A stretch of DNA of 64,000 bases from positions 3,224,001-3,288,000 of the forward strand of contig CM039000.1 in NCBI GenBank assembly GCA_017499595.2, written 5' to 3'. Positions 1-14,324 of the stretch are shown here, one piece after another. The notes below the pieces were generated by a model. It was not told the DNA's origin and did no database searches. It was given only the letters and a program-made list of their open reading frames with translations. Numbering within the stretch: the first letter of the stretch is position 1; each line of letters begins with the position of its first letter. Made by a program: the position numbers and the translations under genes. This DNA comes from Psilocybe cubensis (Eukaryota).

Positions 1-1090
1 TTGCGCTGCTCGTCTGTCTCCTCACCCCATCCTCCCTCTTCCAATCGACGAGCAGCCTGTGCTGCTCGTCCTCGGTTTTTCCGCCACCACCACCTCCATC
101 TGACGTCAACGGGCAGCCTGAGCTGCCCGTCTGACGTGTTGCCGTCGCCGCCACCGCCGCCCTTCACTTTGACGAGCAGCCTGTGCTGCTCGTCTTTCTT
201 TTCACCCCACCCTCCCTCTTCCAATCGACGAGCAGCGCAGGCTGCTCGTCCTTGCTTTTTCCGCCACCACCACCTCGATCTAACGTCAACAGGCAGCCTG
301 AGCTGCCCGTCGACGTGTTGCCATCGTCACCGCCGCCGCCGCCCTTCCCTGTTCACCCCACCCTCCCTCTTCCAATTGACGAGCAGCGCAGGCTGCTCGT
401 CCTCGGTTTTTCCGCCACCACCAACTCCTTCTGACGTCAACGGGCAGCCTGAGCTGCCCGTCTGACGTGTTGCCGTCGCCGCCACCGCCGCCCTTCACTG
501 TTCACCCCACCCTCCCTCTTCTAATCGACGAGCAGCCTGTGCTGCTCGTCCTCGGTTTTTCCGCCGCCACCACCTCGATCTAACGTCGACGGGCAGCTCA
601 GGCTGCCTGTCAACGTGTTGCCATCATCACCGCCGCTGCCGCCCTTCCCTGTTCACCCCACCCTCCCTCTTCCAATCGACGAGCTGCGCAGGCTGCTCGT
701 CCTTGCTTTTTCCACCACAACCACCTCCTTCTGACGTCGACGGGCAGTCTGAGCTGCCCGTCTGATGTGTCGCCATCGCCACCCCTCAGTCTGACGAGCA
801 GGTTGCGCTGCTCGTCTGTCTCCTCACCCCATCCTCCCTCTTCCAATCGACGAGCAGCCTGTGCTGCTCGTCCTCGGTTTTTCCGCCGCCACCACCTTGA
901 TCTAACGTCGACGGGCAGCTCAGGCTGCCTGTCGACGTGTTGCCATCGTCACCGCCGCCGCCGCCCTTCCCTGTTCACCCCACCCTCCCTCTTCCAATTG
1001 ACGAGCAGCGCAGGCTGCTCGTCCTCGGTTTTTCCGCCACAACCACCTCCTTCTGACGTCGACGGGCAGTCTGAGCTGCCCATCTGACGT
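1..1090. repeat. GC/CpG-rich tandem array, ~150-180 bp unit, at least 7 copies, each with two short hairpins; runs off the window start
   Basis: The anchor TTCCAATCGACGAGCAGC (with variants) recurs near 39, 219, 370, 520, 670, 841 and 992. Each unit carries GACGAGCAGC-N4-GCTGCTCGTC and ACGGGCAGC-N4-GCTGCCCGT. Confidence 0.93.
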
Positions 1091-1412
1091 GTTGGTTATG
1101 AGGATGGTTAACGTGCTGGATGTCCGTGTTGTTGGTCTGTATTTATCCCCTTCACATTCTTAGATTTCTCAATTGACCACCTTTTCCTGGGCCTGCAGAG
1201 ATAACAGAGAAATACTGCTTGTTATTGTCCTTAGTCCTGCCAACACCACCCTCCTCAATTTGATTATCCGCTCATTTCTGCTTTTGCATTCCCTAATGGT
1301 TAACACTTCCTTGGTGTATTATCTCTTATTTGGACATGGTCACATGATGACATGTGCACTACTCGGGCAATCTGTTGCGATAACGGATCTTTGTTTGTTA
1401 CCACCATCTACC

Positions 1413-4400
1413 ATGTCTTCCTATACTCTTTCAACCTCTGAAATTGCTCTTTTGCTTCGTATATTCAGGCATGGAGCCTTTGCTGAAGATGAAGATTACC
1501 TTGAAGATCTGTTGGTCCGTTTGGAGGCACTCAGCAATCCCTGGGATCTGCCAGAAGATCAGTCCACCTACGTTGTCAACTCTGAGACTCTCCATCATGA
1601 TGTAGACATTGGCCATACTGGGAATCTGGCAGGAACTGAAGTTGTGGGTGAGGATATGGTTGAGGATGAGGATGAGGATAGAGATGAGATTGAGTGGGAG
1701 GATGAGGATGAGGATAGAGATGAGATTGAGTCAGAGGATGAGGATGAGGATGAGGATGGAGAAGAGGATAGAGATCTGAACCAGGAGGTTGTCATGCAAA
1801 AAATGCATGTTGTAGATGGCGGAAAAAGGCTGGCAGTGGCTGGTGGGGATCATGGTAGAGGAGGAGGAGGAGGAGATAAAGGAAAGCATCGTGGCAGAAA
1901 GCCCTGTGTCAGAGGAGGACAAAAGGAACCGCGTCAACAAAACCAGGCTTTGTTGGATGTTGTGGGATTTGAGGATGTGGATAGCAGAGTAGCGGAGAAT
2001 GAAGATGAAGACGATGTTCTGGAAAGGCAGTATGAGATCGCTCAGCAGGAAACAGCAGAAGAAGACAGGGAAACACCGGAAAACCATGTTTTAACAAAAT
2101 CTACTAGGGCTTTGCTCCTAAAGGTCTGCTCTGTCTGCGATGATATAATGGACTCTTCTGGTTCCTTGCCTTCTTTCCAAAGTGTTGTGGCGGATCCTAT
2201 TGGCCTTTTGACCTATCTTTGCAATCCTGTCTATAGTAAATCATATCTTGATGCAATTCTAGGCGACCAATCCCTGAAATCTTTAGCAAACCGTTGCTCA
2301 ATGGCAGAGTGTAATACTCTTGTCAGTAAATTTGTGCAAGTTCTGTCTTTAATGCATTTCAGAACTAAAGTTGAAAGGTATGTATCGGCATTTAATCATC
2401 TAGTAGATTATATACTTATCCAACTTTATTACAGTGAATTCTTACAAAAGAAGAAAACTACTCCTAGCCTTACCCGGAGACGGTTACTTGAAGACTTCTG
2501 GTTGGATGGAAAAGATAAACCTGAACCCAAGTCAAAGAATGCTCTTTCTATGGCCAACAATGTTAGAAAGATGCATGATTGGCTTAAAATGGGGTCGGCA
2601 TTTTGTATCTTAGGAGGAAGCGGTAAGAAATTTTAATTATTCCATATAAATCTCAACTAAATGTTTTTAGGTTCATTGTATCTATTACCTGTGTTGATCT
2701 GTGCAGGGGTCAATGGTGACATTAGAAAGATGCCACTAGACCAATGTATTAGGCTGGGAGCTTTAATAAAATCACCAGATTTGTGTAAGTCAGATAATTG
2801 TACAGATTTGAAATTGTTTCTTATAATTTTATAGCGCTTCCTGGGCAGCTTGTCACCAAGTCTCTTATTCCAGCTATTTCAAAGCTTGGAGAACTTTTTG
2901 ATATTGAATTCACATCCATGTTTTCCCCCGACATGCTCTCTGGCTATCATGCTCAATACACATCTTCGGTTTCTGCACGTAATTTGAAGGAATCTGATAA
3001 AATTTTTGACAATATCAATTTCGAGTAAGTAACTGTTTTATTGTAGGTGAATCTATTTATTCACATTCTATATGTAGGACCTATAGGAGAAAAAGGGACT
3101 GGAATGCCTGGTCTAGCTTTTGTATCAATGATTTACAGAATCTTTCTGGCACTATCAATGATATAGAAGCATATTCATCTTACGCCAAACAACTATCAGG
3201 CCCTACAATCTCAGAGGCTATACCGTCATCACCTACAGTTATATCTCAATCCACGTCTCGAATTTCAACTATATCACCAACTGTGCGCTGTTCTTCTCCA
3301 ATGTCAATTTTAGAAGATATTCCTTTATTGGATGATGACGCTATGTCTGTATCAGATTATAGCTCTCGTTGTCCCTCTCCGCTTCTGGAAGATGAAGACG
3401 CTGCTTTCCCTGGCCATATTATCAATTCCACATATAAATCGGATGCAGACTTGAATGCTAAATTTCCTTTTAGTCGAACAGCATCTAAACAACAGATTTT
3501 TTCTACTACACAAGCGGAGAGGAAAAAAGCAGAAGAAGCACCATCTTTTCTTGATTTCGAGCAGTTCAGAATACAGGTACTAGTTTTTTTCTTTCCTAAG
3601 CCATCTTTACTCATTATTTTACAGTTTAAAAAACACATTACTCGTGCTGGAATAAGAAGAGGCAAGAAATATCTTCTTCTTAGCTCTGATATTTTAAACC
3701 AGTAAGTTTCTTTTTAAATTTACTTTTTTATTTAAAGAAAGATATACTAATGCATACTTTGCTAGGCTACCCTTGCGAATCAATGATTCCAAGGGTGCTA
3801 TGCAGATTATTGTGGATCCAACCATGTCTTCCGATATGCGCTCAAAGTTATGGACAAATTTTAAAGTGGCATTTGGTGAAAGCCTTGTGGAAACAGACAG
3901 CAAATCCCAGGGTGAATCTCATCACTTTACATCATTACATTTTACTTGGTATAACCGCTACAGTACTAAGGTGTCAGGGTTTCTCCAGTTTCCCCTCTTT
4001 ATCTTCACAGAATTATCTTATCCTTTCATTATCTTATCAATTACCTGATTAGATAGTTTATTTCTTTCATCACAGCCTTCTTGCTCCACTTCTTTCTAGT
4101 AAATTCTATATGATTCCTAGTCTTACTCATCCTTTTTCTATATGATGTCACTTTTATTCTTTAACCTTCCTTTATGATGTAATGTAGGGAATATTCTAGA
4201 ATAGCTGTAGAGTATAAATACTGGACTTGTAGGTAGCTGTAGCTTCAGCTTCAATCTCTTAGGATATCCACTATCATTGGTGTGATCTCTTAGAATCATT
4301 GAGTCTCTCTCACTCTTTTATTCTCTCTTTGCTCTCTTACTCTCCCTCTGCTCTCTCTCTCTCTCCCTTGCTTGATCTTTGTTGGTGGCCTTGTCACACT

Positions 4401-7400
4401 GATTATAGTGTTGCCCTGACAGAAGATTGAAGCTCTCTCAAGACAACTCCACCATCTTTCTTTCAACACCAAACTCTTCAACCTCTTCAACCTCTTCAAC
4501 ATCATCACCTCAACCTTCTTCCCCCACTTCCAACCCACCAACCTCTTCATCAACCTCTTCACCAATCTTCTTACCAACCTCTACATCTCCACCAATCTTC
4601 AACATCCTCCTCAAGACCTTTCTTCAAGACCTTTGGCTCATCATCTTTCCTACTCTCTGTTGTGTGCTGTGTGTGAACTTAGTAGATAGGGATACCAACT
4701 GTTGGGGCAGACACAGTCCTACTAGTGTTCTGTTTTTGGTGGTCTAGGAAATATCCAGTAACCCTGTGATCCTAGGTTTAGAGCCCTGAGTGGTGTGACA
4801 ACTGGGTATCCAGTAGATAGATATTTTTTTTAGAATACTTAGTATAGTTTCAAGGGCACTTTTAGTAGATAGCTTCTCCCACACACACATCAGAGAGCCT
4901 ACCTACCTCTACCCATGGACATGGACCCCTCCCAATTGCCTCCCACCACTCCTTCTGTGGAAGAGCTCATGCATCAGGTCCAGCTCCTTACCCAAGAGTT
5001 GAATTTTCTTAGACAGCAGCAGCAGTCATTATCCACTCCACCACACCCTCAGCAACCAGTCAGTCAGTCACCATCACCATCACCACCACCACCACCTGCT
5101 GCTCTAGATATTCATTCTTTCCCTACCCCTCATGTTGTCCCTTCCTGTTCACACTCTGCCATTAAAGTCTCACCTCCAGATCCATTTGATGGTTCTATGG
5201 AGAAGGCAGAAAACTTCCTCAGTCAGCTTAAATTATATTTCTATGGGAAAGGGATTACAGATGACTTTCAGAAAGTTATTTGTGCTCTATCTCATATGAA
5301 AGGAGGTACTGCTGGGAAGTGGGCATATGAGAAGACTAAAGTAATAGACAATGCTCAGTCCCAAGAAGGTCTTTGGGCTGACTTTGTTTATGAATTTAGG
5401 GAAGTGTTTGCAGATCCAGACCCCTCCAACACAGCTAAGCATAAAATGCACATGCTCAAGCAAGGCAGACAGACTGCTGATGAGTATGTTGCTAGCTTCA
5501 GGGCTCTGATCTCAGATACTGGGTATAATGATGCTGCTTTGGTAGACCAATTCAAGGCTGGGCTTAATGAAAATCTCAGGAATGCAGTCTACTATGTTCC
5601 TGACATGCCCAAAACCTTGGATGGATGGATTAAATGGAGTACTAGGCTAGATAGGCAGTGGAGACAGAGTGAGGCCTTTACCAAGTCTCTTTCCTCCTCC
5701 TCTTCTTCTCCCTTCCTTAAAGCCCCACCTCCCAAGGCTGTTCCTAAGCCTACTCCAAATCCTCCAGTCTTTTCCAACAGCAGCTCAAGGACCTTTGGTG
5801 CTCAGGCAAAGCAACCAGATGTAGTTCCCATGGAGGTTGACTCTGGATGGAAGTCAGTTAGGCCAATTGTTTGCTTCAAGTGCAGAAAGCCTGGTCATAA
5901 GGCTGTAAACTGCAGGTCATCAGTTAACATCAATGCTATGACCCATGAAGAACTGGCTGACTACTTTGGGAAATTAATCTTGGAAGGCCAGGAGCAGAAA
6001 GATGAGGAAAAGAAAAATTTTTAGAAGCACCATTGGTGAAAGACATGTCCCAATGGCATAGATTTAATGTACTAGAAAATGAAATTGACAGACTTGATCC
6101 TCAGTCTTCAGATTCTGGTGCAGAAATCATGTCTTCTTCTTCCTCTCTTTCTACCTTCCCTGAAAAGATCTACATCCTCAACCATAATCCTAAAACCTCT
6201 ACCCATTTGTCTGTCATCTTAAAGACAATGGACACAGAGAAAAGGTTATCTGTTGATGCTTTGCTTGATTCTGGAGCTACTGGCCTCTTTCTGCATTCTG
6301 GTTTTGTGAAGTATCATAATCTCAACACAAGGAAACTTCCTAGAGCCATTCCAGTCTATAATGTTGATGGTACCCTCAACAAGAGTGGCTCTATCCATGA
6401 GGAAGTAGACTTAATTATGGTACACAAAAACCATACAGAAAGGGCCACCTTTGCTGTTTGTGACTTGGGAGACAAATCTGCTATCATTGGACATACTTGG
6501 CTTTGGCACCATAATCCAGATGTTGATTGGAAGACAGGGGATGTCCAGTTTATTAGATGTCCCTCTGACTGCCAAATGGAAGCCAAAAGAGCCAGAAGAA
6601 AGAGGCAGAGAATAGCTGCAGTCAAAAGGAGGAAACTCCCTCAATTTGATGAAGAAGAAGAAGATTCTATTGAAGATTCTTCTGATTCTGAGATTGAGCC
6701 TGAGGATAGAATTTTTATTTCATACCTTCATCCTCAGAAGCAGTCTATTAATGCTACTTCTACTATGTCTCAAAGATTAGCAGAAGAGTCTCATCAGCAA
6801 GCTGATTCCCCTAAGAAAACCTTTGAAGAAACTGTTCCTAAGCACTATCATCAGTTTAAAGGTGTTTTTTCAAAGGAATCTTTTGATAGGCTACCAGACA
6901 GAAAGCCTTGGGATCATGCTATTGAGCTGAAACCTGGTTCTGAACCTTACAGATCCAAGATTTATCCTCTTTCTCCCAATGAACAAAAGGAACTTGATGC
7001 CTTTTTAGAGGAAAATCTGAAGTCTGGCAGGATTAGACCCTCCAAGTCACCTATGGCCTCCCCTGTATTCTTTGTCAAGAAGAAGGATGGATCTCTTAGG
7101 CTTGTCCAGGACTATAGGAAACTGAATGAAATGACCATCAAGAACTCCTACCCCCTTCCATTGATTTCTGACATTATCACCAAACTCAGCAAAGCCAAAT
7201 ACTTCACCAAACTTGATGTTAGGTGGGGATTTAACAATGTCAGAATCAAAAAAGGAGATGAATGGAAAGCAGCCTTTAGAACCAATAGAGGACTGTTTGA
7301 ACCATTGGTCATGTTCTTTGGTTTAACCAATAGTCCTGCTACCTTCCAAACTATGATGAATGATATCTTTATTGAGCTCATTGATGGAAATGTTGTCATT

Positions 7401-10400
7401 GTCTACATGGATGACATTTTAATTTTCACTGAGACTCTTGATCATCATAGAGAGGTAGTCAAGCAAGTTCTGCAAATCTTAGAACAGAACAAACTCTACC
7501 TTAAAGCAGAGAAATGTGAATTTGAAAAGAAAAAGATTGAATATCTTGGACTAATCATTTCACAAGGCAGGATTGAGATGGATCCTGTCAAGGTAGAGGG
7601 AGTTTCTAAATGGCCTGAACCTGAAAATGTCAAGGATGTCCAATCATTCTTGGGATTTGTTAATTTTTATAGAAGGTTCATAGAGGATTTTGCAGACATT
7701 GCTAAGCCCCTTCATGAATTGACAAAGAAAGGAACAGTCTGGAGATGGAGTCTTAGACAGCAGGAAGCCTTTGACCAGTTAAAGAAGAAAGTCACTTCTT
7801 CACCTGTCTTGATTTTCCCTGATGATAACAAGCCATATAAAGTTGAAGCAGACAGTTCAGATTATGCTACTGGGGCTGTTTTATCTCAGGAAGGATCAGA
7901 TGGGAAATGGCATCCTGTAGCCTTTATGTCTAAGAGTCTATCTGAAGTAGAAAGGAATTATGAGATCCATGACAAAGAGATGCTGGCTATTATCAGAGCA
8001 CTAGATGAATGGAGACATTATCTTGAAGGAACCCAACATTCCTTTGAGATTTGGACAGACCACAAAAACTTAGAGTACTTTATGGTTGCCCAAAAGCTCA
8101 GCAGAAGGCAAGCCAGATGGTCACTCTTCCTGTCCAGATTTGATTTTACTCTTCATCATAGGCCTGGTAAAAGATCTCTTAAGCCAGATGCTTTGTCTAG
8201 GAGACCAGATCATAAAAAGGGAGAGAATGATAACCAAAATGTAGTTCTTCTCAAACCTTCCTACTTTAAAATCCAGGCTCTCAAGCAGGGTCATGCTACC
8301 ATTACTGGTGCAGAAAATGATCTTCTTAAGAAGATTAGAGAAGCTAAGGAGATGGATGAAAAGGTGGTCAAGGCAGTTCAGGAGCTCAAGAAATCTTCTA
8401 CCAAGAAGATTGAAGGACAGGAATGGTCAGAAGAACAAGGCCTTATTCTCTACAGGGGGAAGGTGTATGTTCCCAAGGACAAAGATCTTAGAAGAAAGAT
8501 TGTGGAACTGCACCATGATGCCTTCATTGCTGGACATCCAGGGAAATGGAAGACAATTGAGCTAGTCTCTAGGAATTATTGGTGGCCAGGAATGTCACAT
8601 TTTATTGCAGCTTATACCAGAGGTTGTGATAGATGCAACAGAACCAAAACCTTTCCAGCCAAACCTCTTGGCCTTTTAATTCCTACTGAGATTCCCTCTG
8701 ATGTCTGGCAATGCATCTCTGTGGACTTTATTATGGGGTTACCAGAATGTCAAGGGTATAATGCCATTATGGTGGTTGTGGATAGACTTAGTAAAATGAT
8801 CCACATTATCCCTACTACAGATGAAGTCACTTCTGAAGGGACAGCCAGACTATACAGAGATTATGTCTGGAAACACCATGGCTTACCCATTAAAATTCTG
8901 TGTGATAGAGGTCCACAGTTTGTCTCAAGGTTTATGAAAGAACTCAACTCAATACTTGGTATCCAGACAGCCTCATCTACAGCCTACCATCCCCAAACTG
9001 ATGGTCAGACTGAAAGAGTTAACCAAGAAATTGAGCAGTATCTTAGACTCTTTATAAACCATAGACAAGATGATTGGGTTGAATGGTTAGCTCTAGCTGA
9101 ATTCTCTTATAACAATAGAGTTCAGGCTTCAACCAGGCAGACACCATTCATGCTCAATAATGGCAGACATCCCAGAATGGGCACTGAACCCCTTAGAGAT
9201 AGTAAAATGGACACTGTGGATACCTTTGTGAAAAATATGGAAGAAGCCAGAAAAGAAGCAGAGTCTGCACTTAGAAAAGCTGCTGATGATATGGCTAAAT
9301 TCTATAATAGACACAGAGGTACTCCAACTCAGTACAAAGTTGGGGATTTGGTATGGTTGGATGGCAAGGACCTCAAAACTGATAGGCCCTCCAAGAAATT
9401 GGATGATAAAAGATATGGGCCTTACAAAATTACCAAAGTTATTAGCCCTAATGCCTATGAGCTTAAGCTGCCATCTACCATGAAAATCCATCCAGTGTTT
9501 AATGTGGTTAAACTTCTACCTTATCACCCAGATATTGTAGAAAGAAAGCCTCCTTCTAGACCACCTCCTGTCATTCAAGGAGAAAATCCTGAGTGGGAAG
9601 TTGAATTTATCAAGGACAGCAGACTTTTTAGAAACAAACTTCAATATTTGGTCAAGTGGAAGAACTATCCTAATGAAGAATGCACTTGGGAGCCTGCAGA
9701 GCATTTGAAAAATGCTTCTAAGGCTATCAAGGACTTCCATGCCAAACATCCTTCAGCACCTAGAAGGATTTCTGCTGTGACCTTTGATAGACTTTCTTTC
9801 ACTCCTATTATTAACTTTACTGAACCTCCTCCTCTTCTTAAACCCTCTAAACTAACCCATCCATGTGCACATTGTGGAAAATGTGCCTTAGAGAGGGGGT
9901 GATGTCAGGGTTTCTCCAGTTTCCCCTCTTTATCTTCACAGAATTATCTTATCCTTTCATTATCTTATCAATTACCTGATTAGATAGTTTATTTCTTTCA
10001 TCACAGCCTTCTTGCTCCACTTCTTTCTAGTAAATTCTATATGATTCCTAGTCTTACTCATCCTTTTTCTATATGATGTCACTTTTATTCTTTAACCTTC
10101 CTTTATGATGTAATGTAGGGAATATTCTAGAATAGCTGTAGAGTATAAATACTGGACTTGTAGGTAGCTGTAGCTTCAGCTTCAATCTCTTAGGATATCC
10201 ACTATCATTGGTGTGATCTCTTAGAATCATTGAGTCTCTCTCACTCTTTTATTCTCTCTTTGCTCTCTTACTCTCCCTCTGCTCTCTCTCTCTCTCCCTT
10301 GCTTGATCTTTGTTGGTGGCCTTGTCACACTGATTATAGTGTTGCCCTGACATAAGGTCAGTTTTTAAATCCATATACTTATTCTCTTCCTAATATATTT

Positions 10401-11065
10401 TTTTTAGTTTATTCCTCCTGAAGGCATGTCAGAGGAACAAGCTAAGACTATATATCCTCCTTACTATAGAAGAGAGGGTAAAAAGATCAAGACAAATTCA
10501 TGCACTATAACTCCTCGGGCATCAGCAGAATATCACCGCTATCTTGGTATTCATAATTTGTTGGATAATATTCTAAAAGATGTACTGATTTGGCAAGCTT
10601 TGCGTGTACGTTTTTATTCATATCTTGATCCAACTTATTGCTCATATGTTTTAGCTGGAACAATATCTTCCTAGAGAGTATGAGAAGATAAGGCGATTTG
10701 CAGACCGCCTACCTGGCCAAGACCGTTCATCAGCTTATCCCTTTCCAGGATTTGTTGTTAATATCAACAATGCAACTCTCATCCACCGCGATTGGCATGA
10801 TGATATATTGTGCATCATTATTGTTTTGGGTGATTGTATAGGAGGACACTTGGTCATCTATGAACTTGGATTGGTTCTTGCGCTAAAACATGGAGATATG
10901 GTAATATTCAGATCTTCAAAATTGACTCATTTCAATATGCATTTTTCTGGTCTTCGGGGGTCTTTGGTTTTCCACAGTGATGCTGCTGGGAAGATATGGT
11001 TAGAAAACCAGAATGGATGGTCTGATAATGTATATTTCTTTGGCGATGATGATGTTGTAGCATAA
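1413..11065 (+). CDS. TET/JBP-family 2-oxoglutarate/Fe(II) DNA dioxygenase with a long acidic/helical N-terminus; 9 exons, LTR retrotransposon inserted at the donor of intron 7
   Basis: Exons at about 1413-2377, 2435-2622, 2671-2784, 2835-3024, 3078-3576, 3625-3701, 3766-3970, 10408-10605 and 10655-11065 join in frame across GT-AG introns. The last exon reads GFVVNINNATLIHRDWHD...GGHLVIYELGLVLALKHGDMVIFRSSKLTHFNMHFSGLRGSLVFH, with HxD at 10784-10792, distal His at 10928 and 2OG-binding Arg at 10955. Confidence 0.85.
3972..4421 (+). repeat. 5' LTR (450 bp)
   Basis: TG...CA ends with an 8-bp terminal inverted repeat, TATAAATA at 4213-4220, and no difference seen from 9903-10352. Confidence 0.97.
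4424..4434 (+). promoter_or_regulatory. Primer-binding site, self-priming type
   Basis: AGATTGAAGCT, just after the 5' LTR, is the exact reverse complement of AGCTTCAATCT at 4247-4257, ~26 nt downstream of the LTR TATA box. There is no TGG tRNA-type PBS. Confidence 0.8.
4915..6024 (+). CDS. gag: Gag polyprotein (retrotransposon capsid plus CCHC zinc knuckle)
   Basis: 369-aa ORF with PDPFDG, LKQGRQTADEYVASF...LVDQFKAGLN, VPMEVD and CFKCRKPGHKAVNC. Confidence 0.95.
   Translation: MDMDPSQLPPTTPSVEELMHQVQLLTQELNFLRQQQQSLSTPPHPQQPVSQSPSPSPPPPPAALDIHSFPTPHVVPSCSHSAIKVSPPDPFDGSMEKAENFLSQLKLYFYGKGITDDFQKVICALSHMKGGTAGKWAYEKTKVIDNAQSQEGLWADFVYEFREVFADPDPSNTAKHKMHMLKQGRQTADEYVASFRALISDTGYNDAALVDQFKAGLNENLRNAVYYVPDMPKTLDGWIKWSTRLDRQWRQSEAFTKSLSSSSSSPFLKAPPPKAVPKPTPNPPVFSNSSSRTFGAQAKQPDVVPMEVDSGWKSVRPIVCFKCRKPGHKAVNCRSSVNINAMTHEELADYFGKLILEGQEQKDEEKKNF
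6015..6021 (+). promoter_or_regulatory. -1 ribosomal frameshift slippery heptamer A AAT TTT joining gag to pol
   Basis: An X XXY YYZ heptamer sits in the gag frame directly before the gag TAG. The -1 frame (LEAPLVKDM...) is open into pol. Confidence 0.75.
6021..9902 (+). CDS. pol: Pol polyprotein: aspartic protease, reverse transcriptase, RNase H, integrase, chromodomain
   Basis: LLDSGAT (PR); LVQDYRKLN and YMDDILI (RT); EADSSDYATGAVL and WTDHKNL (RH); HHD...GHPG...CDRC, SVDF, CDRGPQF, TERVNQ and GPY (IN); WEVEFI...QYLVKWKNYPNEECTWEP (chromodomain). Confidence 0.97.
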   Translation, partial: LEAPLVKDMSQWHRFNVLENEIDRLDPQSSDSGAEIMSSSSSLSTFPEKIYILNHNPKTSTHLSVILKTMDTEKRLSVDALLDSGATGLFLHSGFVKYHNLNTRKLPRAIPVYNVDGTLNKSGSIHEEVDLIMVHKNHTERATFAVCDLGDKSAIIGHTWLWHHNPDVDWKTGDVQFIRCPSDCQMEAKRARRKRQRIAAVKRRKLPQFDEEEEDSIEDSSDSEIEPEDRIFISYLHPQKQSINATSTMSQRLAEESHQQADSPKKTFEETVPKHYHQFKGVFSKESFDRLPDRKPWDHAIELKPGSEPYRSKIYPLSPNEQKELDAFLEENLKSGRIRPSKSPMASPVFFVKKKDGSLRLVQDYRKLNEMTIKNSYPLPLISDIITKLSKAKYFTKLDVRWGFNNVRIKKGDEWKAAFRTNRGLFEPLVMFFGLTNSPATFQTMMNDIFIELIDGNVVIVYMDDILIFTETLDHHREVVKQVLQILEQNKLYLKAEKCEFEKKKIEYLGLIISQGRIEMDPVKVEGVSKWPEPENVKDVQSFLGFVNFYRRFIEDFADIAKPLHELTKKGTVWRWSLRQQEAFDQLKKKVTSSPVLIFPDDNKPYKVEADSSDYATGAVLSQEGSDGKWHPVAFMSKSLSEVERNYEIHDKEMLAIIRALDEWRHYLEGTQHSFEIWTDHKNLEYFMVAQKLSRRQARWSLFLSRFDFTLHHRPGKRSLKPDALSRRPDHKKGENDNQNVVLLKPSYFKIQALKQGHATITGAENDLLKKIREAKEMDEKVVKAVQELKKSSTKKIEGQEWSEEQGLILYRGKVYVPKDKDLRRKIVELHHDAFIAGHPGKWKTIELVSRNYWWPGMSHFIAAYTRGCDRCNRTKTFPAKPLGLLIPTEIPSDVWQCISVDFIMGLPECQGYNAIMVVVDRLSKMIHIIPTTDEVTSEGTARLYRDYVWKHHGLPIKILCDRGPQFVSRFMKELNSILGIQTASSTAYHPQTDGQTERVNQEIEQYLRLFINHRQDDWVEWLALAEFSYNNRVQASTRQTPFMLNNGRHPRMGTEPLRDSKMDTVDTFVKNMEEARKEAESALRKAADDMAKFYNRHRGTPTQYKVGDLVWLDGKDLKTDRPSKKLDDKRYGPYKITKVISPNAYELKLPSTMKIHPVFNVVKLLPYHPDIVERKPPSRPPPVIQGENPEWEVEFIKDSRLFRNKLQYLVKWKNYPNEECTWEPAEHLKNASKAIKDFHAKHPSAPRRISAVTFDRLSFTPIINFTEPPPLLKPSKLTHPCAHCGKCALERG
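9890..9899 (+). promoter_or_regulatory. Polypurine tract
   Basis: AGAGAGGGGG lies 3 nt before the 3' LTR. Confidence 0.85.
9903..10352 (+). repeat. 3' LTR (450 bp)
   Basis: Direct copy of 3972-4421, followed by the TSD TAAGG. Confidence 0.97.
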
Positions 11066-11202: not shown

Positions 11203-13281
11203 ATGCAAACCCGTTCTTTAAAAACAACAAGTTCAGCACCAGCCAAGCCTAAGGCTAAGCCCAAATCCAAGTCTACAAGTACATCAACAACGTCAAAAAA
11301 AGCTTCTTAGAAAAGCAAAGCATCGCAAGACGTTTCTAGTGGACAAAAAGGTAAGTATTGATTCTATCAATGTTCTGTTGTTAATATCTTGTTATTATAC
11401 TGTCAGATTCATCTATAACGTCAAATGAGCTAGCTATATTCCGGAAGGTCCAAGAACAAATGAAGTCTCAGCGTAAGCGTGCTCAAGACGCTGTAAATGA
11501 AGGTAGGTAAATTCCATTTATAAAATCCTACATTTATGCCATTTTCTTGTAGATATTCAAGACAGAAATATGCAGCTTCTTGCACAGCAGCAAGAAAAAG
11601 AAGATCATCCTAGTGAAGAGGAAGCTCGCCGTCCTGCCAAACGTACTCGCACTAGAACAACTCAACTTAGCGATGATGAGCAAGAACTAGCAAATTCATT
11701 AACACCTTTGTCTACTACACGACGCCAAACCACTATACGTCCATCTCCAAGCATAGAATCCGGAAATGAAGAAGACAACAATGATGATGATGATGATGAC
11801 GATGCAAAAGAATCCGCAATTCAACAGGAGAGAGACGGCAGTGATGAAGGAGATGCCAAAATGGACATTGATAATGGCAATATTGGAAATGAAGAAATGG
11901 TTCAGAGCAATAGAAGCTTTGACAACAATGGCGTACGTTTTACAACTTATTGATATCTATTACTCATGATTATTTCTAGATTGAGATCATTGATATTGAG
12001 GATGATTCTCGATCAGTAATATCTAAAATATCCGGCACATCTCGCTCAGCTAGCTCTGAGACTCCAGTACGATTTGCAAAGTCAGCCAAGGTTACTGAAA
12101 GTGATTTTCCTCCTTCCGTTTGGGAACTTGCTGTTGCCGCAAAGTCACACATCCGGTATGCCCTAATCAAAATTTCTCCCTTTCCTTATGCTACTCGGGC
12201 AGAGCGCGTAGAATTCATCTGGGATGTTATCAAAGCGACCTCCAAATTGAATAATAAAGCATTGGTTTCTGCATTCAAGCAAGCCGCTAATAACGAAGCT
12301 ATTAAGAAGAATCTTATTGCCTTTGTACGTATATACAAATCAACTCATTATATATTTGCTAATGTTTATTATAGACAATGTATGGACGGACTGCTTTAAT
12401 CAGCAATATCATTGGCAAGGCTAGAGACAAAGTTAAAGGATTCTACTCTTTAGGAGGCAATGCTACTGGCAATCATGACGATGGCTCTGTTGCTGAGGAT
12501 GTGAAATGGTTATTAGATCAGTCTCATTATGTTTATGGTGGCCTTGACGTCAAGGTATGACTTGATTTCTACCATATCAACTTACTAATTTAAATGCTTT
12601 AGAAACGAACTTATGACGCAAATAAACCTTTTCTTCATCCTCTTATTATTGAGCTTATTGAAGCACAATGGTTTCCATCATCGTATCGTTCAAAATCTGA
12701 TGTAGAAACAGCTACAAACATTATGAAAGACAAAATTATTCCATCGTCTGTTATTCTCTTAGTAGCCACAGCGGTAAGCTATATCATTCTTTATTCATAC
12801 TTATACTTAATTTTGATTTAGATTGAACATGCACTCAGAGAATGGTCTAATGGTCACAAGGCTTTTAATATTAACTTCGCCGAAGAAGGTTCTCGTCAAT
12901 GGTTATATTTTTTTCTGCATAATATTTATTATATTCTAAAATATTTTCATCTAGCTATCAACGTTTAGAAAGCAATTGGAAGACCATTGAGAAGAATGCT
13001 TATAAATGGTCTGTTTTCTGTCGTAAAAAGATTTTTAATGCAATTGCGTCAGTATTTTTTTTAATACCTTAATTCATACTAAGTATACTTTTGCTTTTCA
13101 TAGCGCAAACTACCAAGTTATAGGAGCCGCTCCTAGTGATATGTTAGCTCTTGATTTTGCTGCTTTAGATAAAATAGCCGAAGAAGATGGAAATGATGAA
13201 CCAGCACAAAGAGAAGATGAACACAATGGCAATAGTGGCAATGTTGGTAGTAATGGTAATAGTGGTGAAGTCGACAACTAA
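11203..13281 (+). pseudogene. Multi-exon DUF6532-like protein (basidiomycete, transposon-associated) with an in-frame TAG early in exon 1
   Basis: The spliced reading gives ...YGRTALISNIIGKARDKVKGFY...VKWLLDQSHYVYG...KPFLHPLIIELIEAQWF...VILLVATAIEHALREWSNG..., which I recognise as DUF6532-like. There is a stop at 11308-11310; a downstream ATG at 11460 could rescue translation. Confidence 0.65.
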
Positions 13282-13747: not shown

Positions 13748-13951
13748 TATTTCAATTGCTTTATAATGCTTTAAGCTGTTTTAAGCTATTTTAAAATACT
13801 TTTGAATATTTTTAGCACTCCATTCTAAATCCACCTTGCTTTAGAGACTTCTAGATCCCTTTTTGTCTTTAGTGTCTTTAGTCTACCTAGGTGTACCTAA
13901 AGCAACTTAAATATACCTAGGGACAAAACCTATTTTCCTGATGTTTCTACA

Positions 13952-14324
13952 GGATATCTTGTGCACTGTCAACGCGCCACATGACTGCGCACAATATAAC
14001 TGCACAGCGAGTGGTGTTCGATATGTGTATCAAGAGCGCAAGGCAACAACCATCAAAACTCCAGTCATTGAACATAAAGTCAACCCTGACCACCGTGTTC
14101 TTAATATGGGGCAGATGCGCAATTCTATCCATCTGCAGCAATTTTGCGTTCCTGCACGACCGGTTCCTAACAAATTGGAAACAATACACAAAGCTGTTTC
14201 CCATACTATTGATACACGAAAGGCGGCAGCAACCAGCGGTCGTGCCACACGAGGAAGGGGGAAAGCGGCTCATAAACTTAAAGGGCAAGGCCACAGTCAA
14301 CATCGTGACATAGGCCAAGATTGA
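13952..14324 (+). pseudogene. 3' exon fragment of a basidiomycete transposase-like gene (possibly CACTA/EnSpm-related)
   Basis: After the acceptor TTTCTACAG it reads DILCTVNAPHDCAQYNC...VYQERKATT...IEH...VLNMGQMR, resembling C-termini of fungal transposase-like proteins. No upstream exons are adjacent. Confidence 0.5.

Follow-up and report, generated by a model that had tools for sequence, protein, structure and literature searches.

The window, a stretch of 64,000 nucleotides from the Psilocybe cubensis contig CM039000.1, contains a gene predicted to encode a TET/JBP-like dioxygenase that is interrupted at the end of an exon by a complete long terminal repeat (LTR) retrotransposon. The features of the locus are listed below in window coordinates (TSD, target site duplication; TIR, terminal inverted repeat).

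1413 to 3970, + strand: 5' part of the TET/JBP-like gene, with exons 1413-2622, 2671-2784, 2835-3024, 3078-3576, 3625-3701 and 3766-3970.
3967 to 3971, + strand: left TSD, TAAGG, made up of the last four exon bases and the donor G(+1).
3971 to 3976, + strand: rebuilt donor, GTGTCA; weak, with 4/9 matches to the U1-pairing consensus and no G at +5.
3972 to 10352, + strand: complete element, 6381 bp; intact Ty3/gypsy retrotransposon with a chromodomain.
3972 to 4421, + strand: 5' LTR, 450 bp; TATAAA at 4213, probable transcription start at 4247.
4056 to 4075, + strand: nearest candidate cryptic acceptors in the 5' LTR (TAG ending at 4056, CAG ending at 4075), from a motif scan only.
4424 to 4434, + strand: primer-binding site (PBS), complementary to LTR positions 4247-4257; probable Tf1-type self-priming.
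4873 to 6024, + strand: gag open frame (Ty3 capsid, zinc knuckle).
6006 to 9902, + strand: pol open frame (protease, reverse transcriptase, RNase H, integrase, chromodomain).
9890 to 9899, + strand: polypurine tract.
9903 to 10352, + strand: 3' LTR; TATAAA at 10144, probable start at 10178, leader without ATG.
10353 to 10357, + strand: right TSD, TAAGG; its AG (10355-10356) abuts the native donor (AG|GT).
10357 to 10407, + strand: native intron, 51 nt, phase 0, intact; donor 7/9, CTAAT branch motif, TAG acceptor.
10408 to 11065, + strand: last two coding exons (10408-10605 and 10655-11065), with the HxD..H triad, the 2OG-binding Arg and an internal ATG at 10426.
13932 to 13943, - strand: right TIR of a Plavaka transposon, whose left end (L045:407) precedes the window by 9.6 kb.
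L046:6389 to L045:406, and 13944 to 14324 in the window: outer interrupted gene, which we take from its motifs to be transposase-like.

A first-pass annotation had placed the insertion exactly on a splice donor, with the GT regenerated, and the LTRs, the TSD TAAGG and the donor AAG|GTGTCA are all as it described. The retrotransposon has the hallmarks of a chromovirus, with TG..CA LTRs, a 5-bp TSD, a polypurine tract and a PBS, and its two LTRs are identical over all 450 bp. Pfam searches of 6006-9899 gave the domain order protease, reverse transcriptase, RNase H and integrase (PR-RT-RH-IN), followed by a C-terminal chromodomain (E = 2.5e-15); the match to the protease was weak (E = 0.0037). 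Self-priming as reported for Tf1 relies on pairing between the PBS and the RNA's own 5' end (PMC4600332). Here, the complementarity between PBS and LTR extends over 11 nt, a length reached by none of 5430 control starts, and this match would put the transcription start 34 nt past the TATAAA box. The gag gene, the PR-RT-RH-IN-chromodomain order, the 5-bp TSD, the TG..CA LTRs and the LTR-complementary PBS are all shared with fungal chromoviruses that use Tf1-like self-priming, and by these sequence features the element is a fungal chromovirus of the Ty3/gypsy group. It differs from other fungal chromoviruses in that its 6381 bp contain no CpG at all, compared to 215 GpC. Among 24 partial copies of the family (≈1950 bp each), 20 had no CpG, three had one or two, and one (L013), apparently a nested insert, had 53.

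With the insertion removed, the gene model is open from the ATG at 1413 to the stop at 11065 and encodes 967 residues, with a phase-0 junction at 3970. An optional in-frame intron (2378-2434) would shorten the product to 948 residues, while a candidate intron at 2124-2182 was dismissed because it breaks the frame. Homologs were collected with a HMMER scan that gave 693 matches at E ≤ 0.001, the best 150 of which were used; a word-indexed search for longer protein homologs found none. The claim that removal of 3971-10407 would restore WYNRYSTK|FIPP in frame is borne out by the open model and by the homologs, since the join was spanned by 62 of 84 BLASTP HSPs from 76 homologs of at least 200 residues (from the best 150 of 693). 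Alignment A1 had one out-of-frame row, for 3768-3968 of the window, which was ignored. Residue conservation was assessed in the 40 homologs that span residues 750-940, among 48 of at least 400 residues (from the best 150 of 693). In this set, His875, Asp877 and His923 were each present in all 40 sequences and Arg932 in 36. The 5' part of the gene terminates in a conserved HFxWYNRY strand, whose His755 and Arg761 were found in 36 and 35 of the same 40, respectively. The first-pass annotation saw no other lesion in the gene, which is true of the frame and of the residues needed for catalysis and reaches no further.

The Pfam Tet_JBP profile scored the last exon alone at 25.1 bits (E = 1.1e-5), against a curated cut-off of 34.9, and matched 28 of 34 aligned members at E ≤ 0.01 (best 1.4e-12). 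A profile search reached TET2 at E = 0.003, and NgTet1 weakly. Fold comparison was done on a model of a homolog, P0026 (pLDDT 91.8), rather than on the window protein. The top Foldseek match to this model was CcTet, and structural alignment gave Z = 12.7 for NgTet1 (rmsd 3.6, 166 residues aligned) and 12.1 for CcTet, followed by PHD2 at 10.8. Residues 14-219 of the model align to NgTet1 136-321, as judged from the ends of the range. The identification of the interrupted gene as a predicted TET/JBP-like dioxygenase is thus well supported by sequence and model comparisons. At the DNA level, neither the gene nor its 3' flank was found a second time in the genome. There were 11 matches to distant paralogs, at 30–36% identity, which were unsuitable as models of the empty site.

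The gene resides in a DNA transposon of 17.15 kb (23.5 kb with the retrotransposon) that has perfect 12-bp TIRs starting with CATCA, TT flanks, and a Plavaka transposase (PF18759, E = 7.8e-89). The genome holds one identical match to this transposase and 30 others at 26–50% identity. PlavakaB has been defined by CATCA..TGATG termini, a 2-3 bp TSD and a Plavaka transposase (Kojima 2025, PMC12730594). Judged by its termini and transposase, the host element is of this type, and the TET/JBP-like gene is its cargo and not a host gene, a status that the first-pass annotation had missed. The TET-carrying Plavaka transposons described in the same report likewise combine CATCA..TGATG termini, a 2-bp TSD, the Plavaka transposase and a TET/JBP cargo, although the families it describes come from Agaricus bisporus and Gymnopus confluens rather than Psilocybe cubensis. 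It lists for Plavaka the PE type, with an HxE motif (PMC12730594), whereas the protein here has HxD: the motif reads HRD, and the Asp is found in 40 of 40 long homologs (from the best 150 of 693). Kojima argues that TET cargo genes serve the transposon, not the host (PMC12730594), and loss of this copy would therefore probably cost the fungus little. The insertion allele is probably near neutral.

An empty allele was present in X18, a DNA sequencing run from another strain. The reads join 3966 to 10353, skipping 6386 nt, which equals the element plus one TSD (the joint was annotated as GT..AG at a cut of +4). The empty allele was supported by 11 reads with 8 different starts, at a flanking depth of ≈15–20. 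Consequently, the insertion is polymorphic and recent. Identical LTRs were found in 23 of the 39 family copies with two LTRs. In two further runs, X1 and X3, contigs enter the LTR ends and the gene has no differences; these runs come from one study, possibly the source of the assembly, and were not treated as independent evidence. In a segment a short way upstream of the ATG (1233-1287), X18 differs from the window by at least 10 substitutions.

The coordinates given earlier for the native phase-0 intron, with its donor at 10357 and its end at 10407, hold. The duplicated 5 bp were the four bases at the exon end and the G of the donor, so that the TG at the start of the LTR rebuilt a GT automatically: G3971 and the first T of the LTR form AAG|GTGTCA, while the native donor, AAG|GTCAGT, now lies at 10357. 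In addition, the right TSD supplies an AG (10355-10356) that the first-pass annotation had overlooked, and 3971-10356 is a perfect GT..AG unit. The nine positions of the U1-pairing donor consensus were used as a yardstick for donor strength. The new donor, which had been called weak, matched at 4 positions, compared to 6–7 for all seven native donors, and was outscored by 54 of the 261 GTs within the element. The other native introns of the gene are 48–64 nt long. In a neighboring gene, an open alternative model uses a 4/9 donor in a short intron, which suggests that weak donors may be usable here. Excision of 3971-10356 with retention of the 51-nt intron would lead to a stop at 768 residues, while excision of 3971-10407 in one step, or of the two units in succession, would restore the frame.

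This geometry is already in print for an insect, and the present fungal case is an arrangement of a known kind that arose by chance. In the fall armyworm Spodoptera frugiperda, the LTR retrotransposon Yaoer interrupts SfCHS2 by a ≈6.4-kb insertion at an exon/intron border (PMC11249258). Its TSD, GAAGG, likewise consists of four bases from the exon end plus the G of the donor. The T of the LTR recreates the GT in a donor, AAG|GTGTCT, that shares 8 of 9 bases with the one described here, the native donor is restored past the 3' LTR, and reading into the LTR meets a stop (PMC11249258). The authors draw the same three splice routes, including the TSD-based GT..AG unit, and report wild-type mRNA at 0.08 of normal; the element-only splice product went undetected in their published data (PMC11249258). 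The two cases differ in that the insect has long introns and exon definition, and the insertion there affects a host gene under selection whose transcripts were measured (PMC11249258), whereas the fungal gene has introns of 48–64 nt and is transposon cargo. Intron definition is reported to prevail in fungi, basidiomycetes included; the introns of Cryptococcus neoformans average 64 nt, with 5% over 200 bp (PMC2397502), and fungal splicing is said to favor the "smallest intron possible" (PMC8469720). The intron statistics behind our conclusions are those of other fungi, not of Psilocybe cubensis.

Autonomous LTR elements can act as introns, as described for the Copia introner of Panicum (PMC12130899), and taking the AG from the TSD is a standard introner route (PMC11282704). 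The unit at 3971-10356 resembles introners in its GT..AG bracket with a TSD-derived AG (PMC12130899, PMC11282704), and its removal would restore the pre-insertion RNA. However, introner families repeatedly make spliced introns (PMC12130899), whereas in this family the bracket occurs in 5 of 50 TSDs, as chance predicts (2.6 expected). The locus also bears comparison with recursive splicing. At recursive AG|GT splice sites, one removal rebuilds the abutting donor. Fungal [D1,2] stwintrons are similar in that excision of one unit rebuilds the donor of an abutting second intron, but they are described as starting with GGU and having a short inner intron without a TSD (PMC8469720); the present unit starts with GUG, is 6.4 kb long and is flanked by TSDs, and does not qualify as a [D1,2] stwintron. 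Literature searches, which did not reach most subscription journals, found no fungal case of this arrangement.

According to the family census, the precision noted in the first-pass annotation is not a property of the element. The genome contains 102 LTR starts, from which 57 insertions were rebuilt; 50 had a perfect 5-bp TSD and 49 were independent, giving 98 site-strands. Left out were two loci without an LTR match, two unpaired 3' LTRs, seven insertions without a matching TSD and one duplicate; two of the 102 LTR-start matches also fell outside the census. Both LTR ends read TGTCAG inward. Since the LTRs start with TG, a GT arises at one end of the insertion whenever the TSD ends in G or starts with C, and this applied to 27 of the 50 TSDs (16 with G as the fifth base, 14 with C as the first). 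The target already had a GT in the same register at 11 of 98 site-strands, and a strong donor (7/9) only at the present site, compared to an expectation of 0.066 from flanking control sequence; the present case had been picked for exactly this coincidence. No donor targeting was found among the 50 TSDs and 98 site-strands. Thus, the regenerated GT is a by-product of an LTR that starts with TG and a TSD that ends in G, and the event is one of chance, though uncommon within one family. One practical rule for annotation is that any TG..CA element with a 5-bp TSD of the form NNAGG gets a GT..AG bracket for free, and since this happened in 5 of 50 copies, such fits are not evidence of adaptation.

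Taking these data together, we consider it likely that the polymorphic allele is null or near-null, and that splicing out of the element is less likely than in the insect. On this reading, a recently active chromovirus inserted by chance into the TET/JBP-like cargo gene of a Plavaka transposon. If the gene is transcribed, most of its RNA would be expected to fail in one of three ways, each of which would lose the HxD..H active site. Some RNA may end in the same-strand 5' LTR. LTRs commonly terminate transcripts, and premature polyadenylation here would follow from that general property; the specific poly(A) signals invoked by the first-pass annotation fared less well, as no AATAAA was found on the + strand of the element. 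Other transcripts would continue into the LTR, which would add 25 residues before a stop (790 residues in all). Finally, the weak donor could be spliced to an acceptor 86–452 nt away, followed by an early stop: the site at 4056 would give an intron of 86 nt and a protein of 783 residues, that at 4075 an intron of 105 nt and a protein of 772, and the CAG at the 5' LTR end (4422) a protein of 853. All four predicted products end before His875. Farther downstream, the strong native donor would tend to remove only the 51-nt intron, using up its acceptor. Splicing out of the element is less likely here than in the insect because of fungal intron definition, the weak donor and the stop-giving acceptors 86–105 nt away. 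The insect donor AAG|GTGTCT, with wild-type mRNA at 0.08 of normal, counts against this reading, since it shows that so weak a donor can work in vivo.

A leaky allele, in which ≈1–20% of transcripts lose the whole element and some intact dioxygenase is made, appears unlikely, though it is the foremost of the alternatives that we considered. The element could be removed in one step (3971-10407), or 3971-10356 could be removed first, rebuilding the native donor, followed by the 51-nt intron, in a recursive, introner-like manner. Both routes would restore the frame, branch-like motifs lie 6 and 23 nt upstream of the AG at 10356, and there is the precedent of Yaoer, which with the same geometry yields wild-type transcripts (PMC11249258), as well as the Copia introner (PMC12130899) and the TSD-AG introner route (PMC11282704). 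The precedents, however, come from an insect and a grass, both with long introns, and even in the insect the element-only product went undetected in the reported assays (PMC11249258). The acceptor at 10356 is AAG, with no pyrimidine before the AG, unlike all seven native acceptors (YAG), and the identical 5' LTR presents a better CAG first, at 4422. In the interval from the new donor to 10356, a motif scan, which was crude (it recovered four of seven native acceptors), counted 137 AGs that have a branch-like motif. The earlier framing of "knockout or leaky" was fair, since the geometry permits clean removal and the insect case shows it at a low level, but the splice-out idea falls short in that these 137 sites intervene and the nearest give stops. 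The observation of the first-pass annotation is confirmed, and its interpretation partly supported. More doubtful still is the stronger form, in which the 6.4-kb autonomous element is removed in two steps via the TSD-made AG|GT and the dioxygenase stays partly active. If true, the intron would be ≈100 times longer than normal ones and would use a recursive splice site created by the TSD, in a fungus that splices by intron definition; it would offer a natural test of the intron-length limit of the Agaricomycete spliceosome.

It had also been proposed that the 3' LTR drives a transcript of the catalytic domain, spliced at 10357-10407 and translated from the ATG at 10426. Such an RNA may exist: predicted from ≈10178, by the self-priming match 34 nt past TATAAA, it would have a 179-nt leader free of ATG ahead of 10426 and an intact native intron, and an LTR without CpG would be immune to silencing by CpG methylation. 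On the other hand, transcription running through an element often occludes the promoter in its 3' LTR. The 196-residue product would also not be the whole catalytic domain, as it lacks the HFxWYNRY strand, encoded before the insertion, with His755 (36/40) and Arg761 (35/40; best 150 of 693). The P0026 model shows this segment as a confident strand, inside the region that aligns with NgTet1 and CcTet. The product is unlikely to be active, and we regard an active LTR-driven enzyme as very improbable. Least credible of all is a family preference, through targeting or through selection, for splice donors or AG|G sites, which would make it a damage-lessening LTR introner. NNAGG or CCTNN TSDs, which also supply the AG, were seen 5 times against 2.6 expected (P = 0.13), and strong donor-like 9-mers within a 10-position window at 3 sites against 0.66 (P = 0.03); without the ascertained case, these values become P = 0.27 and 0.14. 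The other two donor-like sites are in other registers and are only candidates as donors, and the TSDs are diverse, their sole bias being toward G/C ends and an A/T center. A second full copy, at C9:2693629 (L048/L113; TSD GAAGG), does lie within an open frame and is bracketed by GT..AG.

That copy lies in the same orientation as the frame it interrupts, which is presumably transposase-like, and its excision would restore the frame. Another copy, C5:1869804 (L074/L073), has the TSD GTAAC after AAG, with CATAG 60 nt on, and its target may be the opening five bases of an intron, the donor being kept; no clear gene was found there. Two copies, C4:964940 and C12:1961715-1967643, lie ≈3–5 kb from distant dioxygenase paralogs, consistent with insertion into transposon-rich regions.

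The coexistence of inserted and empty alleles provides a ready-made test of whether a 6.4-kb LTR element can be spliced under intron definition, and could reveal whether a TSD-made AG|GT works recursively. In a dikaryon, however, a junction read joining 3970 to 10408 is also the normal product of the empty allele and so proves nothing. X14, a run guessed to be RNA and labeled as another organism, reached no exon and covered only five short stretches of the element, and is uninformative on expression.

The insertions are nested at three levels, since the Plavaka transposon itself sits between the branch point and the acceptor of a 62-nt intron of the outer transposase-like gene, which had no Pfam match. 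The transposon carries further cargo: a 14-3-3-like coding stretch (L045:5771-6229, Pfam E = 3.2e-13) and an intron-rich gene of ≈530 residues at 11203-13281 (+ strand), two tested pieces of which had no Pfam match. Just upstream of the TET/JBP-like gene, and also within the Plavaka element, is a GC-rich array (window 1-1120 and L045:9420-10000) of ≈150/300-bp repeats with internal palindromes.
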